Positions 1 through 27,469 of a DNA stretch of 32,820 nucleotides are shown here, in pieces (the first letter of the stretch is position 1; each line of letters starts with the position of its first letter). Made by a program: the position numbers and the translations under genes. Source of the DNA: Promethearchaeota archaeon (GTDB lineage: Archaea; Asgardarchaeota; Lokiarchaeia; Sigyniarchaeales; SOKP01). Under the pieces are notes generated by a model. It was given only the letters and a program-made list of their open reading frames with translations. It ran no database searches and had not been told where the DNA came from. The DNA is taken from positions 1 through 32,820 of the forward strand of contig JBHLNT010000033.1 in assembly GCA_048941265.1 (NCBI GenBank), written 5' to 3'.

Positions 1-630
1 GAGATATTCACCTTAGATATTGAAATGGCTTTTGCTAATATGAATGATGTACTTAAAATTTTAGAGGAAATAGTCCATCAGGTAATTAAAAATGTTAGAG
101 AGAAGGAAATGAATTCCTTAAAATTATTAAATATGGAAAAAAAAACTATTATTCCGGAACTTCCATTTCCCAGATATACTTATGAAGAAATGCTTGATTT
201 GATAAAGACCAAATTTGGGATCTACATAGAATTTGGGGAAGATATTTCTACTGAAGCATATCGTAAATTAGGAAAAGAATTACCTGGATATTATTATATT
301 ACCCATTGGCCAATGTCAATTAAGCCCTTTTATATAATGCCCTCAAAAGATCCCAAATATAGCGAATCGTTTGATTTACAAATGGGATGGCTTGAATTAA
401 CCTCAGGAGGGACAAGAGTGCATAATAGTGAGCAACTACGTCAAACTCTAGAAGCAAAAGGACTCAATCCAGTTGCATTTGAATCCCATCTGAAAGTTTA
501 TGATTTTGGAATGCCGCCACATGCTGGAGTCGGATTAGGGATAGATAGGTGGATTACATTCTTATGTGGGTTAGATGATATAAGAGAAGCAGTAATGTAT
601 CCAAGAACCCCTGATCGACTTACTCCCTAA
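1..630 (+). CDS. aspS: Aspartyl-tRNA synthetase, C-terminal part (gene begins upstream of the window)
   Basis: Frame is open from base 1 (EIFTLDIEMAF). Class IIb motifs KPFY, SESFDL, ELTSGGTRVH and GMPPHAGVGLGIDR, with C-terminal YPRTPDRLTP typical of archaeal AspRS. Confidence 0.93.
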   Translation, partial: EIFTLDIEMAFANMNDVLKILEEIVHQVIKNVREKEMNSLKLLNMEKKTIIPELPFPRYTYEEMLDLIKTKFGIYIEFGEDISTEAYRKLGKELPGYYYITHWPMSIKPFYIMPSKDPKYSESFDLQMGWLELTSGGTRVHNSEQLRQTLEAKGLNPVAFESHLKVYDFGMPPHAGVGLGIDRWITFLCGLDDIREAVMYPRTPDRLTP

Positions 631-665
631 TTTATATAAAAATATTAAAATCTTACCTATATATC

Positions 666-1583
666 ATGAGTGAAGGTTATATTAAAGATTATGTTAAAGC
701 AGGGAAAGCAGTAATTGCTGCTAAAAAATTAGCAAGAAAAATTATTAAACCTGGAGCTTCCTTCTTAGAAGTGGCAAATAAAATAGAAGCAGAGATTTAT
801 AAAAATGATTGCGAATTGGCATTTCCTATTAATATGTCCCTGAATGAAGTAGCAGCACATTATAGCCCGATCATTGACGATGTTACGTTAGTTCCTGAAA
901 AAGGTTTATTGAAAATAGATTCTGGTGCTCATTGCAATGGTTATATAGCTGATTCGGCATTTACCATTAATTTAGATGAAGATCCTATACTTCAAAAGTA
1001 TATTAATGCTGCAAAAGAGGGTCTTGAAGCTGCAATTGAGCTATTTAAACCTGGTACTAAGTTATATGAACTAGGAGAAGTAATCGCTCAAAAAATAATC
1101 AGTCATGGTTTAAGGCCAATTACAAACTTAGGAGGTCATGAATTAAAGCAATATAATTTGCATGCAGGACCTTTTATACCTAATTATAAAGAAACATTGC
1201 ACAATCAAATCTTAAAACCAGGTGACGCTTATGCGTGCGAACCCTTTGCTACATCAGGAGTAGGAAAAGTAGTAAATGGAAAACATTCCTATATTTACCG
1301 CTTTGCCAGAAGAATTAAGAAGAATTTACCTTATGAAGAACAAGGTTATATGAATAAAATTGAAAAAAACACCAAAAATCTCCCTTTCTCTCCTCGGTTA
1401 TTGGAAAATAAGAACATAATACCCAAAAATAAAATTCAAAGAACTATTGATGCATTTGTAAGAAAAAAAATTCTTGATCATTATCCGCTTTTAATTGAAA
1501 GATCTGGTGAATTTGTGGCTCAACAAGAACATACGATAATAATTGACTTGGATGGGAATACAATTGTCACTACAAAAGAATGA
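666..1583 (+). CDS. map: Methionine aminopeptidase, type II
   Basis: AFPINMSLNEVAAHYSP, KIDSGAHCNGYIADSAFT, NLGGH, ACEPFAT and AQQEHT metal-binding motifs, plus the type II helical insertion. Confidence 0.96.
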   Translation: MSEGYIKDYVKAGKAVIAAKKLARKIIKPGASFLEVANKIEAEIYKNDCELAFPINMSLNEVAAHYSPIIDDVTLVPEKGLLKIDSGAHCNGYIADSAFTINLDEDPILQKYINAAKEGLEAAIELFKPGTKLYELGEVIAQKIISHGLRPITNLGGHELKQYNLHAGPFIPNYKETLHNQILKPGDAYACEPFATSGVGKVVNGKHSYIYRFARRIKKNLPYEEQGYMNKIEKNTKNLPFSPRLLENKNIIPKNKIQRTIDAFVRKKILDHYPLLIERSGEFVAQQEHTIIIDLDGNTIVTTKE

Positions 1584-2400
1584 TGTAAAGAATATTATTA
1601 TTGCTGTTATATTATGTGCTGGAGAGGGCAAAAGATTAAATGAAATTATTAAGGACATTCCAAAATCCTTGATAAAGATTAACGCCTTAGGCAATAAATC
1701 GATATTACATCATACTATTGAATTATTACATAAATTAGGAGTTTTTCAAATAGCTATAGTCAAGGGTCATTTAGGTAAGAAGATTGACGAATTTTTTGAT
1801 TTATTGACAAAGAACAATATGCAATTAAAAGAAAAACTGATTTTGATTGATTCTTTAGAGCAATATAAATTAGGACCACTCTATTCTTTTCTTTCAATCA
1901 CTAAGCATAAAAATATTTTCCAAGATAAATATCACTATCTCATAATTCCTGGAGACACAGTTTTTCAATACGACCTTATATATGAGATTATCTCAATTTT
2001 AGATGAGAAATATAAATTAAGGCTAATATATCCTCTAATTTTTTATAGAAAAATTAAAGTAAGTTCTCTGAGACAAAGAACTAAATCGGAATCAATTTCA
2101 ATTATAGAGTTAAAGAAAATTAATTCGCAAAAATTTCTTAAAAGCATTAATCAAGTGAAATTAGATGATCTTTCAAACGCTGAATTTATTAATCAAATTA
2201 TCCCGGTTTTTTTATTTCCCTATCAATTCATCCAAGAAATTATCAATATGGTAAAATTAATTTCTGTGCATACGATAAAAGAAATTGTAAATCAATTGAT
2301 AATCAGGGGTAGTAAAATTTTAGCCATCATGATTGACGATGATTATAATTTCTATGACATAGACACTGAGTTAGATTTAATTGAAATAGAAAAATTGTAA
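1564..2400 (+). CDS. NTP transferase family protein (sugar/choline/inositol-phosphate nucleotidyltransferase-like); probable TTG start at 1564, overlapping the map stop
   Basis: N-terminal ILCAGEGKRL...PKSL signature, PGD motif and C-terminal DIDT. The start is uncertain (1543, 1552 or 1564). Confidence 0.8.
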   Translation: MSLQKNDVKNIIIAVILCAGEGKRLNEIIKDIPKSLIKINALGNKSILHHTIELLHKLGVFQIAIVKGHLGKKIDEFFDLLTKNNMQLKEKLILIDSLEQYKLGPLYSFLSITKHKNIFQDKYHYLIIPGDTVFQYDLIYEIISILDEKYKLRLIYPLIFYRKIKVSSLRQRTKSESISIIELKKINSQKFLKSINQVKLDDLSNAEFINQIIPVFLFPYQFIQEIINMVKLISVHTIKEIVNQLIIRGSKILAIMIDDDYNFYDIDTELDLIEIEKL

Positions 2401-2408
2401 AAAAAAGG

Positions 2409-3000
2409 TGGGAAAATAAGAGTCTCCGAATATTGTATAATTCTCTGGGATTTTGCTTCTATGGGTTTAAGATCTCCTGAGAATTTTTATTCATTCATTC
2501 GGAATAAAGTTCCCAATATAAAAACACACTTAAATTCTATGAGATTTTAGACGTAACGTACTCTCTATCTCGGAAGCAGTAAGTTTTTTGGATTTTCAGA
2601 GGTAATTTTATTTTAGTACCCAATAAATATTGCTTTTGTGGTAATTCATTGTAAAAAAGTACTACTTCGTAAAGTTATAAATGTATTAATCATAGTGAGA
2701 GAAACTCTTTGAATTTAAATGTATCATTTATCTTCCGTATCAACGGATTTTATTCTTTTTTAGAAATTTTGATATTTAAATGTTATATGCAGTGATTCGA
2801 AGTAAATTAGTACCATTATACTAATGTACTAAGGAATTTTAGGTAAAATAACATTAGATTTTAGTGTATTTTTTAATCTCCGCAAAAATAAAAAAAAAAA
2901 TTTCGTCGGAAATTATGAATCAATTAATTTTATGCTTACAACTAACCAATGTTTAGTTCCGCATTAACGAAATTTAAACCAATGCTTATTTATTTTCCCA
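2409..3000 (+). ncRNA. Candidate large structured non-coding RNA (~590 nt), family unknown
   Basis: No ORF of 60 aa or more. Termini pair (TGGGAAAATAA 2409-2419 / TTATTTTCCCA 2990-3000). More than 10 nested helices were found by eye, several needing G-U pairs that work only on the + strand. Confidence 0.55.
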
Positions 3001-3196
3001 AATAATTAATATAAAAATGAGATATATAAATCTTCCTATTAATTTTTCCAAATTCTCAAAAATTATATTAAACTGAAAATATCATGCATAAATCGTTTCT
3101 ATTGCTAGATTAATAAAGAGAAAATGTATAAAAATCAAGTTTTTATTTGATTTAATTTATCTTATTATTAAACAATCAATTTATCTTTAATTCAAC

Positions 3197-3583
3197 ATGT
3201 CAGATAAAGGAGACATCTCGATCCGAATAGAAATTTTCGGTGTGGGAAATGTAGAGGGGGTCATAATAAGACATTTAGGTCCCATTTCGGCAGATGCGAT
3301 TCTAAGCAAATTGCCTTTTGTTCTAAGAGGGAGATTTGCTATTGGGTCGAAAAATTATTGGACTCTTCCAATTGGAATAAAAAAAGGTCCCGACTCTAAA
3401 GCTACAAAAAATGTGGAAAAAGGGGATATAATATATAATCCTAAAACAGATGAGATGATTATTCTTTTAGAAACTATTGAAATGCCAAATAAAGTAAATA
3501 AAATTGGCAGAATTACGGCTAATATCGAATTGTTTCATAAAGCAACTAATGGAATGAATACAAAAATATCTCTATTAAAATAA
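3197..3583 (+). CDS. Cyclophilin-like fold protein (TM1367/DUF369-like, archaeal)
   Basis: GPISADAILSKLP, VEKGDIIYNP and VNKIGRI match the small archaeal cyclophilin-like family pattern; 128 aa. Confidence 0.7.
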   Translation: MSDKGDISIRIEIFGVGNVEGVIIRHLGPISADAILSKLPFVLRGRFAIGSKNYWTLPIGIKKGPDSKATKNVEKGDIIYNPKTDEMIILLETIEMPNKVNKIGRITANIELFHKATNGMNTKISLLK

Positions 3584-3603
3584 AAAAAGCATTAAGGTTT
3601 GTA

Positions 3604-4446
3604 ATGGCAATCGAAAGAAAATTGACAAGCGTCTTTATGTTCTTTTATTTAGCCGTAATAATTTACCTATTATTATTTATATTAGTCCCTAGCATTAAGG
3701 AAGCAATTATGCAATCTAGGCAAGATATTGCGAATTTAACTGAAGGATCAAATTATTACTGGGCACTGTTATTTGCCCTAATAATATGTTTCATAGGATC
3801 TGCTTCAATTGGTTTTCCTGTTCCGTTCCCTTTTGTGCTGTTCAGCCTATCTAATTCAATATATTTAAGATTTACAAATCAAGGGCTAATATTAAGCGAA
3901 ATTTTAATGAATGGTCAATTCTGGCTTGAAATTATGGGCATCGCGATTGCTGGCGGCCTTGGTGCAGCTTTAGGTGAAATCACGAGCTTTATATTAGGTC
4001 GCGGAACAAAAATTATAGTCGAAAAATCAGATAAAAAATCAAAAGTTCTTTACAATATTGAAGGTTTTGGAAAATTAATAATAGAGCATCCAAATAGAAT
4101 GTATCTATATGTCTTTATTGCCGCGGCTCTTCCTATTCCTGATGATCCTCTTTGGATAGCCTTAGGAATGTCAGAAAAGAAAATTAGTATACCAAAATTA
4201 ATTATCGCAGGTTGGGCTGGAAAAACAATTACTACCACATTTTACGTGTTGCTTCCCATACTAATTATTTTAGGATTTGCCGCCTCGGGCATTGAAGTAA
4301 ATGATGAATCAACAGTAATTACTGAAGCAATCATGCTTTTGGTTACACTTACTATAATGTTCTTTATCTTAGCTTTCGATTGGAATAAATTCCTTGAAGA
4401 TAAAAGAAAACAGCTGAAGCAAATTATGAACTATCGTAAAAACTAA
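3604..4446 (+). CDS. DedA/VTT-domain membrane protein
   Basis: Multiple TM segments. GSASIGFPVPF re-entrant motif, GLGAALGEITSFILGR, ALPIPDD and WAGK. Confidence 0.82.
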   Translation: MAIERKLTSVFMFFYLAVIIYLLLFILVPSIKEAIMQSRQDIANLTEGSNYYWALLFALIICFIGSASIGFPVPFPFVLFSLSNSIYLRFTNQGLILSEILMNGQFWLEIMGIAIAGGLGAALGEITSFILGRGTKIIVEKSDKKSKVLYNIEGFGKLIIEHPNRMYLYVFIAAALPIPDDPLWIALGMSEKKISIPKLIIAGWAGKTITTTFYVLLPILIILGFAASGIEVNDESTVITEAIMLLVTLTIMFFILAFDWNKFLEDKRKQLKQIMNYRKN

Positions 4447-4478
4447 TAATTATTGCTTTTAATGAGAACTGGAACTCA

Positions 4479-4652
4479 CTACTTGTTATTATTTAAACAA
4501 TTCTTACAGACGAATACAATTTTTTGTTTATTACCTGAATTTTCGTCATGGTAGATTTGTTTAAAAATATAGCTTCCGCAAATCTCACAAACCGCTGGTG
4601 TTCGGGATTCTCCCAATAATGGTCCTAAATGCTTAAAATTAGCTGATGTCAT
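4479..4652 (-). CDS. Small zinc-ribbon protein, 57 aa (not in the ORF track)
   Basis: Manual translation: MTSANFKHLGPLLGESRTPAVCEICGSYIFKQIYHDENSGNKQKIVFVCKNCLNNNK*. It has two CxxC pairs, and its ATG lies 3 bp after the Alba-like stop codon. Confidence 0.8.
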   Translation of the reverse strand: MTSANFKHLGPLLGESRTPAVCEICGSYIFKQIYHDENSGNKQKIVFVCKNCLNNNK

Positions 4653-25603: not shown

Positions 25604-27469
25604 CTATACTTTTCGATATCCGTCTTCCCACTTTTTTTTCAGCCATAAAGCGCTCTCTTTTGTATCATACACAATGGATCGTTCAGAAATGCCGCCTAAG
25701 TACTCTTTTTCAATGTTAATATGGTGGGAAAAAAGTTCTTTTTTAATTGCATCAATATTATCTTGAAAATCTCCTCCTTGTTCATAAATATTGTTAGCTC
25801 CTCCAACTATAATCGCTTCAAGATTATCTTTATTAGCGCCATTATATAAAATTGTATCCAGCAGTAAAGATACAGAAGTATCTATATATCTATGAGGGAA
25901 TAATGTAGTATCATTTTTTACAACCGGCGATTTTGGAAGTATCATATGGGACATCGCATAAACCTTATGAACTTTATCTTGAAGAATTAATGCTATTCCA
26001 GAACCCAGCCCATAAATTGAGAATTTTGAAGATTTATTCCCATCATCATGAGAATTAATTAGGGCATAATGACCAACCGGTAAATTTAATTCCCCTTTAA
26101 TATTTGGATGGATTATTCTATCAGGATCTTCCATAATAGATAAATCGACTGGTTCTGATTTTGGCGCTAAAGATTTATTTTTTAATCTTTGTTGCTTAGT
26201 AGGTGTTTTTAGATGGCTTTTTGTTTTCTTTATATCTTTTTCTTTTACCTCAATTTGCTCTAACAGATCTTCAATCTGTTTTTCTCTTAACCCTACTAAG
26301 ACTTCTCTTTGCCCTAACTGTGCTTCTTTTTGTTTAATTTTTGATTCTCTCTCATTTAATTGTTTCTCTCGTAACTCAATTTGATTTAATCGTCTGATAA
26401 TTTGAAGTTCACGTTGGTCTAATATCTTTTTACGGGAATCTATTTGGGTTTCTGTTTCGACTTTAATGTTTTTAATTGGTTCTGTTTGTTTAATCTTCAT
26501 CCTTCTTTCTTGTGAAGGTGGAGACGCACTTTTCCTCGAATTTTCTCGTTTGATTACCTTTTTCTCTACTTTATGTTTAATTTCCTTTTTATTAATCTGT
26601 ATTTTGGTGGGTTTTTGGGATTTTTGACTAATTTTAATCTTTTGATTTAACTTGTTTTTCACATAAAAATGGTTATTAGTATCAATTGATTTGAAGTTAC
26701 TCTGTACATTAACTAACATCTCTGTCTTTCCTAAAATTAGGAGTCCCCCCTGCACTAAATGATTTTCTAAAGTTCTTAATAGTTTTTCTTTCGATTCGCC
26801 ATTTATGTAAATTAGAAGGTTTCTACAAAATATTACATCATATTTTGTATTAGTCTTATGCCCTCTGATAATATCCTCTTCAAAAAATTCAACCTTATTT
26901 TTTATTTCATTACTAATTTTAAATTTAGGGCCTAGTTGAGTATCTAGTTTAGTAAAATGAGTCTCCAAATAATTTTTAGGAACCTCATGAATAGAATATT
27001 CACCATACACCCCGGCTCTAGCAATTTTTAAAGCTGTTTTATCAATATCAGATGCCACAATCTCGTAATCAGGAAAATTTATAATTTTAGATTTCAATTT
27101 ATTAAATAATATAGCAATCGAATAGGGTTCCTCTCCAGAAGCACAAGGAGCAGACCATATGCGGATTGGTCTTTTGAGATCTGACACATATTGTCTTATA
27201 AATTCTTCAAATCTTTCAAAAACTTCGTAATTTCTAAAAAAATATGTATAGTTTATAGTGAATTTATCAAGAAAATGGTTGATCTCATTTGGATTAGATG
27301 CGAGATAATTAATATATTCTTGATACGAATTTATATCTAAATTTTTAACTCTAAAATGAATTCTTCTTTCGAGGAATTTCCTTTGATAGTATTCAAACTT
27401 AATTCCCGTTGCATCTTTTAATTTATCTATTAATAAATCAATCGAATTAGATTCTATCGCAATTGTTAT
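25604..27469 (-). CDS. CheR methyltransferase - coiled coil - CheD-like fusion protein (about 620 aa); N-terminus extends beyond the ORF-track start, probable ATA/ATT start
   Basis: The upstream in-frame extension gives the CheR N-domain (DATGIKFEYYQRKFLERRI...FTINYTYFFRN). CheR motifs IWSAPCASGEEPYS, ASDID and DVIFCRNLLIY; CheD motifs GLGS, HMILP, IVGGA and GGISERSI. Confidence 0.88.
   Translation of the reverse strand: MTIAIESNSIDLLIDKLKDATGIKFEYYQRKFLERRIHFRVKNLDINSYQEYINYLASNPNEINHFLDKFTINYTYFFRNYEVFERFEEFIRQYVSDLKRPIRIWSAPCASGEEPYSIAILFNKLKSKIINFPDYEIVASDIDKTALKIARAGVYGEYSIHEVPKNYLETHFTKLDTQLGPKFKISNEIKNKVEFFEEDIIRGHKTNTKYDVIFCRNLLIYINGESKEKLLRTLENHLVQGGLLILGKTEMLVNVQSNFKSIDTNNHFYVKNKLNQKIKISQKSQKPTKIQINKKEIKHKVEKKVIKRENSRKSASPPSQERRMKIKQTEPIKNIKVETETQIDSRKKILDQRELQIIRRLNQIELREKQLNERESKIKQKEAQLGQREVLVGLREKQIEDLLEQIEVKEKDIKKTKSHLKTPTKQQRLKNKSLAPKSEPVDLSIMEDPDRIIHPNIKGELNLPVGHYALINSHDDGNKSSKFSIYGLGSGIALILQDKVHKVYAMSHMILPKSPVVKNDTTLFPHRYIDTSVSLLLDTILYNGANKDNLEAIIVGGANNIYEQGGDFQDNIDAIKKELFSHHINIEKEYLGGISERSIVYDTKESALWLKKKWEDGYRKV

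Follow-up and report, generated by a model that had tools for sequence, protein, structure and literature searches.

A putative single-copy noncoding RNA gene with a covarying terminal helix in one family of Lokiarchaeia

To our knowledge, few large stable RNAs have been described in archaea besides rRNA, RNase P RNA, and SRP RNA. tmRNA combines an end helix, a D-loop-like GG motif soon after it, and a large insert. The Sm-class and scaffold RNAs of eukaryotes (U snRNAs, yeast telomerase RNA, and 7SK) are built of short conserved islands, oligo-U beside stems, sealed ends, and a variable linker, and Y RNAs possess a sequence-conserved end helix, a U-rich loop, and a 3' oligo-U. OLE, GOLLD, ROOL, and their like are large orphan RNAs of bacteria (10.1101/2024.12.08.627333). 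They are several hundred nucleotides long, form transcription units of their own, have paired ends, and are obscure in function.

The window analyzed here (i.e., the whole stretch of 32,820 nucleotides, contig C225 of the Promethearchaeota archaeon genome referred to as G000) includes an intergenic gap at 2400 to 3197 that, judging from the comparison of sequences, very probably holds a single-copy chromosomal gene for a folded noncoding RNA on the minus strand. It is likely that this RNA represents a previously undescribed family, found in one family of Lokiarchaeia. Like OLE, GOLLD, and ROOL, it would be a unit of several hundred nucleotides with paired ends, but it is archaeal, chromosomal, single copy, and not ornate, its interior varies twofold in length, it has no Rfam match, and no partner gene is known. 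OLE, GOLLD, and ROOL themselves were rejected as identities, with no match to their family models and an interior that is not conserved. The archaeal RNase P RNA (RF00373) and SRP RNA (RF01857) are likewise stable stand-alone RNAs in which a U-tract follows a terminal helix; the RNA described here differs in having no catalytic-core or SRP motifs, in its larger size, and in its restriction to a lineage. It resembles tmRNA in its end helix, GG motif, and large insert but has no T-arm, CCA, or tag open reading frame (ORF), and no SmpB was found. With the eukaryotic Sm-class and scaffold RNAs it appears to share a layout, as an analogy, and no sequence or covariance-model similarity was found. 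The end helix, U-rich loop, and oligo-U recall Y RNA, which is three to seven times shorter and is bound up with Ro60/TROVE, for which there were no matches in five genomes. A literature survey of listings and the first parts of abstracts, with subscription papers mostly beyond its scope, returned no report of such an RNA in Asgard archaea, and the main-text passages of two 2026 genome-language-model preprints name neither Loki nor Promethearchaeota. In one of these preprints, every intergenic region of archaea was included in a clustering, and the family may be present as an unnamed cluster in the supplements (10.64898/2026.10.21.760802).

The gap, described as the largest intergenic gap in the first-pass annotation of this DNA, is the largest between ORFs of at least 80 amino acids (aa) in the window, an ORF-free contig end aside, and it contains no ATG-started ORF longer than 29 aa. 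Both flanking genes lie on the plus strand. The nucleotidyltransferase gene (Pfam NTP_transf_3; 1543 to 2400) is the constant tail-to-tail neighbor of the RNA gene, and the cyclophilin-like gene (3197 to 3583) is its usual divergent neighbor; in genus g6, the former still adjoins the RNA gene and the latter is found at another place. The predicted RNA gene occupies 2399 to 2999 on the minus strand (about 590 nucleotides [nt] plus a U-tail), its limits being set by promoter spacing, the terminal helix, and the U-tract of homologs. The RNA would start at about G2999, with its 3' end within or just before the U-tract. Following the minus strand, the gene comprises an archaeal promoter (3023 to 3037; TATA box 3030-3023, preceded by a BRE-like, purine-rich segment); the 5' strand of a terminal helix, P1 (2990 to 2999); the motif (G)CAWUGG(WW) (2976 to 2985; core 2984-2979); and, about 80 nt past the motif, a short stem predicted for the window's clade, whose loop contains an internal oligo-U (2879 to 2910; oligo-U at 2900-2890). 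Then come a variable interior with local hairpins (2504 to 2878; e.g., 2734-2747), a 3' hairpin with an internal loop, P6, which adjoins P1 (2425 to 2503), the 3' strand of P1 (2410 to 2419), and a U-tract terminator (2399 to 2406) that overlaps the stop codon of the convergent nucleotidyltransferase gene. Both strands of P1 were defined by covariation in homologs, and P6 was defined by pairing probability and clade consensus. The interior is weakly conserved even inside the genus, and its segment at 2570-2651 has diverged in close relatives. Since the transcript heads toward the 3' end of a gene that converges on it, the RNA is no leader. Elsewhere in the window, positions 25604 to 27187 of the minus strand encode a 527-aa protein in which a CheR methyltransferase domain is fused to a CheD domain.

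Both ends of the RNA were found by BLAST in three genomes of the window's genus. With the cyclophilin-like protein as a guide, the syntenic interval was located in 124 genomes of the family out of 135; a part of these 124 was examined, namely the intervals obtained directly as loci together with 40 regions retrieved in addition. An identical minus-strand start was seen in 76 loci from 11 genera. Removal of five incomplete or misbounded loci and addition of five others (two g6 loci, one g5 locus, a recut G153, and one metagenome locus) gave a working set of 76 full-length elements. The RNA is about 355 to 790 nt long with a fast-changing interior, and the elements, including about 10 flanking bases, measure 367 to 804 nt (median, about 504). 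The shortest homologs, those of G021, G025, and G032, are about 360 nt long. Collection of the syntenic interval, which the first-pass annotation had proposed as a check, thus provided homologs in which conservation and covariation were found.

A sequence-only model of the promoter and 5' end (R1), trained on 45 sequences, matched 76 of 84 family genomes with E values of 1.3e-5 or better, at 77 places, G020 alone having two. In the eight misses, the cyclophilin-like gene was absent or at a contig end; i.e., the locus was unassembled. The second copy in G020 (L387:5800-6250; contig C87) consists of the promoter and the first ~110 nt only, followed by a small ORF, so that one of the two copies in this genome retains just the first module; either decay to a relic or contamination of the bin could explain it. 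A different arrangement was observed in G003 (L016:690-2065; contig C170), where a displaced duplicate of the 3' part of the RNA lies beyond a 128-aa ORF, adjacent to a full copy whose 3' end is different, a pattern of an element integrating into a stable RNA gene. The 3' end in the window resembles that of the full copy in G003.

Outside the family, R1 gave nothing convincing in 16 genomes (best E value, 2.4e-4) and four weak matches in an overlapping set of 110 genomes. The weak matches inspected were inside ORFs or had no helix, save one short RNA candidate in a genome of a neighboring family (L165:349-470; G049:C84). This candidate consists of a consensus TATA box and an RNA of ~70 nt that would be closed by an end helix of 9 bp, contain an inner hairpin, and finish in a pyrimidine tail; a search of 13 other genomes of that family gave no homolog. 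Twenty cyclophilin-like loci of other families showed neither the neighbor gene nor the element, the nucleotidyltransferase loci of three neighboring-family genomes showed no such RNA, and a search for the motif pattern in five near-complete genomes of other families gave 20 matches, none of which stood out for the architecture and most of which were on ORFs. Because the searches were sequence only and promoter inclusive, the result outside the family means "not found" rather than "absent."

The homologs share one order of elements: a purine-rich stretch, the TATA box, a spacing of about 24 nt, the 5' strand of P1, a short spacer, and CAWUGG, and then the interior, the 3' hairpin, the 3' strand of P1, and the U-tract. 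A consensus TATA box on the minus strand, with the start about 24 nt downstream, is common to all of them. Six promoter columns were invariant across 45 aligned 5' regions, which had been chosen by a TATA-containing pattern, and the promoter was retained in three genomes whose CAWUGG domain is gone. The U-tract comes after P1 in the full-length homologs (a T-run had been part of the search), and archaeal termination is driven by U-tracts (PMC8716108). Dinucleotide shuffling, a check proposed in the first-pass annotation, bore out better-than-chance folding strongly for the minus strand (z, -4.55; 0 of 50 shuffles as good) and weakly for the plus strand (z, -2.38; 1 of 50); a 20-shuffle run gave z values of -4.71 and -2.10, respectively. 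The minus strand had the lower folding z in 20 of 24 homologs (8 shuffles each). For helices drawn for the two largest genera, G-U cells outnumbered A-C cells on the minus strand (150 versus 62), most clearly in the 3' hairpin (57 versus 10), with three helices showing the opposite. Promoter, terminator, wobble bias, and folding therefore all indicate minus polarity. The first-pass annotation had favored a plus-strand RNA and had taken a G-T bias on that strand as a sign of selection, a bias that proved to be an artifact because the helices had been picked on the plus strand. Its caveat, that a minus-strand TATA-like box (3023-3030) and an A-tract (2399-2406) would fit transcription of the other strand, was the correct reading, and both features are conserved in homologs.

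Helix P1 covaries. Across 70 of the 76 elements, its 9-bp core took the form of 14 different strand pairs, and of their 126 cells, 124 were paired; the other six were left out as unanchored, the helix being shifted outward in five of them. Two-sided changes occurred at positions 1, 2, 4, 6, and 9, and position 4 showed all four Watson-Crick types. This covariation extends over 350 to 790 nt, with G-U permitted on one strand only. In the window, the closing helix had a probability of 0.94 to 0.98 on either strand, and on this point the original drawing was right. The drawing had further placed three nested domains inside that helix. Twelve named helices, part of helix II-d, and the hairpin at 2807 do match the DNA letter by letter; as a fold, however, the nesting was not supported. 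On the plus strand, helices I-a to I-e and II-a had probabilities of 0.00 to 0.01, II-c of 0.14, and II-d of 0.08, and most inner helices were broken, in the aligned register, in G001 and G003, the two full-length close homologs tested. Helices III-a and III-c were likely on the plus strand only (0.81 and 0.72) and were not kept in these two homologs. Helix II-e held up as a likely hairpin (0.85 to 0.95), one that is specific to the window.

The bases assigned to domain I instead form the local hairpin P6 at 2425-2503 (2425-2431/2497-2503 and 2439-2445/2479-2485), with probabilities of 0.78 to 0.90 overall and 0.78 to 0.88 on the minus strand. P6 was also predicted by the clade consensus of four sequences, and the main helices of its equivalent in the two largest genera had 85 to 90% of cells paired. 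A structure of 46 pairs drawn from element L027 was evaluated in a 30-sequence alignment, mostly from the two largest genera, in which kinship inflates the figures: 80.8% of cells were paired versus 77.4% in shuffles, and 22 pairs showed two-sided change versus 14.7. None of 500 shuffles was as high for cells paired, two-sided changes, or covariation score; further pair types were not beyond shuffles at that level (32 of 500). Slid controls had 38 to 48% of cells paired. Helices 2, 3, and 9 of the drawn structure were weak (51 to 66% paired), and the window's own clade aligns badly to the interior of L027.

A genome-wide pattern search served as a control. Among the matches listed, 42 of 62 with flanking genes closed a helix of -14.3 kcal/mol or lower before a T-run, versus 2 of 33 full-flank chance matches without flanking genes; the rest of the 62 appear to include truncated loci. 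One locus labeled as a Nanopelagicaceae bacterium (L293) carries the pattern and a flanking-gene match and is probably a misbinned Lokiarchaeia contig. The pattern was also present in L220, L269, L275, and L277, labeled as other Asgard groups, with labels taken as given. A separate small RNA candidate was noted in the genome of the window (G000:C341:5365, plus strand), where a TATA box is followed by a strong end helix (-21.1 kcal/mol) that closes about 120 nt before a T-run. Genera g11, g2, and g6 and part of g1 have an extra internal copy of the P1 5' strand upstream of the 3' hairpin. This copy changes together with the 3' strand of P1, which implies that two strands compete for that 3' strand. 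Of the 16 elements looked at, those of g7, g8, and g9 and that of the window had only a weak copy or none.

The motif reads CAUUGG in 70 of the 76 elements, CAAUGG in 5, and CAUUGU in 1 (that of G013), the elements having been selected by the motif; with the same selection, CAWUGG was the top enriched word across genera. It sits 10 to 22 nt from the RNA start. In 39 elements folded, it had no constant partner in cis, predicted partners lying 13 to 591 nt away. The possibility that it is a general promoter element was rejected (2 of 430 TATA sites versus 6 expected). A run of six or more U residues starts 60 to 97 nt downstream of the motif in 58 of 76 elements, versus 56 of 675 background windows; it often lies in a hairpin loop and is missing from genus g8 (0 of 5). 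The first module has a fixed length. Neither the motif nor the oligo-U is indispensable, since the former is deleted in three genomes and the latter is absent from 18 of 76 elements. The deletion, in G067, G117, and G079 of genus g11, removed the motif and domain 1 and kept the promoter, the end helix, and the 3' half. The oligo-U is a candidate Sm/Lsm site, although we regard this assignment as doubtful. Of the features of the RNA, it alone has an evident candidate reader, the Sm/Lsm paralogs. Four Sm/Lsm matches were found in G000, and Sm/Lsm genes also occur in families for which the searches recovered no such RNA. A run of 7 to 11 U residues could equally be an internal terminator yielding a short RNA of about 110 nt.

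Traces of the element were also recovered from RNA libraries, which were chosen because they hold it. Three soil metatranscriptomes from one study contained 4 to 5% of the element's words (shares of 0.04 to 0.05, which are uninformative on habitat). Nine contigs of close relatives lie inside 2408-2969 (80% likeness, tested over 600-4500), none of them more than 95% alike, and one begins at 2408, adjoining the predicted 3' end. Because the runs were selected and the contigs, which come without strand or level, may be DNA, these data are compatible with transcription and go no further. No contig fell on the 3.3 kb of flanking genes, an absence that carries no weight: the element itself was the criterion for choosing the runs, and the relatives' genes are about 70 to 80% identical there, at or below the 80% cutoff.

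Known RNA families offered no identity. At the gathering threshold, Rfam 15 had no match in the window, the best E value on the gap being 2.3. In 20 homolog loci, with E values of up to 10 admitted, the best E value was 3.8 and no family appeared twice; four unrelated snoRNA matches (E values, 3.8 to 9.8) were all that these loci gave. The view of the first-pass annotation that a large structured RNA of no known family lies here was therefore upheld, by conservation, covariation, promoter, and terminator together with the lack of an Rfam match. A selenocysteine insertion element was considered and set aside: one weak SECIS_5 match (E value, 2.3) was not repeated in the 20 homologs, and a lokiSECIS or eukaryote-type element was rejected given the gene's own promoter and the lack of a gene upstream on that strand. 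K-turns and bulge-helix-bulge motifs, looked for by eye, were not seen conserved.

We consider the best explanation, with a probability of about 0.5, to be a stand-alone minus-strand noncoding RNA, presumably stable and abundant, that acts as an end-sealed protein scaffold. In such a scheme, the polymerase would start near 2999 and stop at the U-tract; P6 would fold first, and the 5' end would then zip onto the 3' end, shielding both ends within P1. Where present (g11, g2, g6, and part of g1), the internal copy of the 5' strand would compete for the 3' strand. The sealed end and the first ~100 nt, with the motif and oligo-U, would be the conserved docking parts, the oligo-U being a candidate landing site for three to four Sm/Lsm paralogs, and the interior would serve as a free linker. 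A scaffold rather than a guide or mimic is a tentative choice, made from sequence features: short conserved islands on a plastic backbone, a conserved end helix, and a motif lacking a constant partner fit protein docking better, because a ribozyme core would keep its interior and no target for a guide was found in 23S rRNA or its leader. More specifically, the RNA might be part of an undescribed Asgard ribonucleoprotein, i.e., a flexible end-sealed RNA with an Lsm ring at the oligo-U and CAWUGG exposed by strand exchange for substrate recognition; we think this analogy-based version improbable.

The alternative that survives best, though unlikely, is a guide or chaperone RNA that pairs in trans via CAWUGG with rRNA ends or tRNA CCA ends. 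U3 and U8 pair with rRNA ends, and T-boxes and RNase P contact tRNA CCA ends through UGG. CAWUGG is the best-kept sequence of the RNA, its lack of a constant cis partner would suit pairing in trans, and competition for P1 could free the 5' leader. CCAAU is present at the 23S 5' end in most family rRNAs examined, but G027 and G015 have a different 23S 5' end and an unchanged motif, and two internal 23S sites fail to track the RNA. A 9-nt stretch of 23S matching the 5' strand of P1 and a 23S site matching the motif were rejected as targets after failing covariation or shuffle tests. Complementarity to the pre-23S leader was at the level of shuffles in 16 genomes, and pre-23S has its own processing stem; no supported pairing was thus found in 23S or the pre-23S leader. 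The leader itself, in the regions up- and downstream of 23S genes (L185-L212), is about 400 nt long in the family. It contains several conserved blocks, one of them with a box C-like word, and pairs with the trailer in a long processing stem. Three 23S genes (L199, L209, and L202, in G123, G067, and G098) are unlike those of the family and are probably foreign rRNA genes in bins.

Somewhat less probable is a product limited to the first ~110 nt up to the oligo-U, or a dispensable, vertically inherited relic, e.g., a non-autonomous mobile element with inverted ends. The fixed length of the first module, its sole retention in one of the two G020 copies, the fast-changing interior, and ends that are inverted repeats would all suit such an origin. 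A short product or relic is harder to reconcile with P1 covariation across the whole length with one-sided G-U, with the three genomes that keep everything but the first module, and with RNA-library contigs that cover the interior and 3' part. Moreover, there is one copy per genome, at one site, with no nearby transposase.

We give little credence to a tRNA-derived mimic of tmRNA-like build, with the ribosome or tRNA enzymes as its target. Its appeal lies in the GG-started terminal helix and the motif behind it, which by eye resembles a tRNA or tmRNA D-loop, in the displaced 3' duplicate of G003, as islands leave in tRNA genes, and in a genome of a neighboring family (L355) in which a tRNA gene and the orthologous nucleotidyltransferase gene converge at a distance of about 280 nt. 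Two other genomes of that family, however, have no RNA gene there, and U replaces the tRNA purine 15 in 71 of 76 elements. No T-arm or encoded CCA is apparent, the 3' region being one long hairpin; ARAGORN found no tRNA or tmRNA, Rfam matched neither, SmpB had no match in G000 (91% complete), and the RNA contains no conserved tag ORF. The gene in question is a tRNA-Arg (L355:2520-2600; G050) on the far side of a small cysteine-rich ORF, at about the place that the RNA gene takes in the family of the window. Five contigs of G000 (C92, C107, C148, C204, and C222) carry tRNA genes seemingly with introns at noncanonical positions, which ARAGORN misses or misreads.

Still less plausible is the idea that a known ribonucleoprotein RNA (a second RNase P/MRP-like RNA, SRP RNA, or box C/D or H/ACA RNA) is present here in a copy that has diverged or been rearranged. 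Read on the plus strand, the order of end helix, looped hairpin, and AAAGUCC-like word recalls RNase P/MRP, but that is the wrong strand and no P4 partner is present; inspection of the alignments showed no pairing of CR-I with CR-V as in the P4 pseudoknot, and no model matched. The RNA locus had no match to SRP Alu or S domains or the helix 8 motif. A canonical RNase P RNA (C190; 121.6 bits) and an SRP RNA (C271; 69.4 bits, below the cutoff) lie elsewhere in G000, the Rfam matches of homologs were unrelated, and the tandem G-A of K-turns was not conserved in the alignment inspected by eye. Finally, a nested three-domain RNA on the plus strand, or a 3' untranslated element of the nucleotidyltransferase mRNA, is very improbable: its helices are drawable, the plus strand folds slightly better than shuffles (z, -2.4), and the linkage to the 3' end of the nucleotidyltransferase gene is constant, but promoter and terminator oppose it in all homologs, wobble bias favors the minus strand, and the inner helices are improbable and not conserved.

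If the RNA were part of an undescribed Asgard ribonucleoprotein as outlined above, homologs would be present in other Asgard families but too diverged for a sequence-only model. An RNA of 350 to 790 nt with a near-perfect promoter, present in every assembled locus of a large family of Lokiarchaeia, would suggest that the archaeal lineage closest to eukaryotes possesses an unrecognized RNA machine. Even if confined to the family and dispensable, it would be a new large archaeal noncoding RNA family for Rfam, for which the alignment supplies exact predicted ends, strand, motif, oligo-U, and natural deletion variants.
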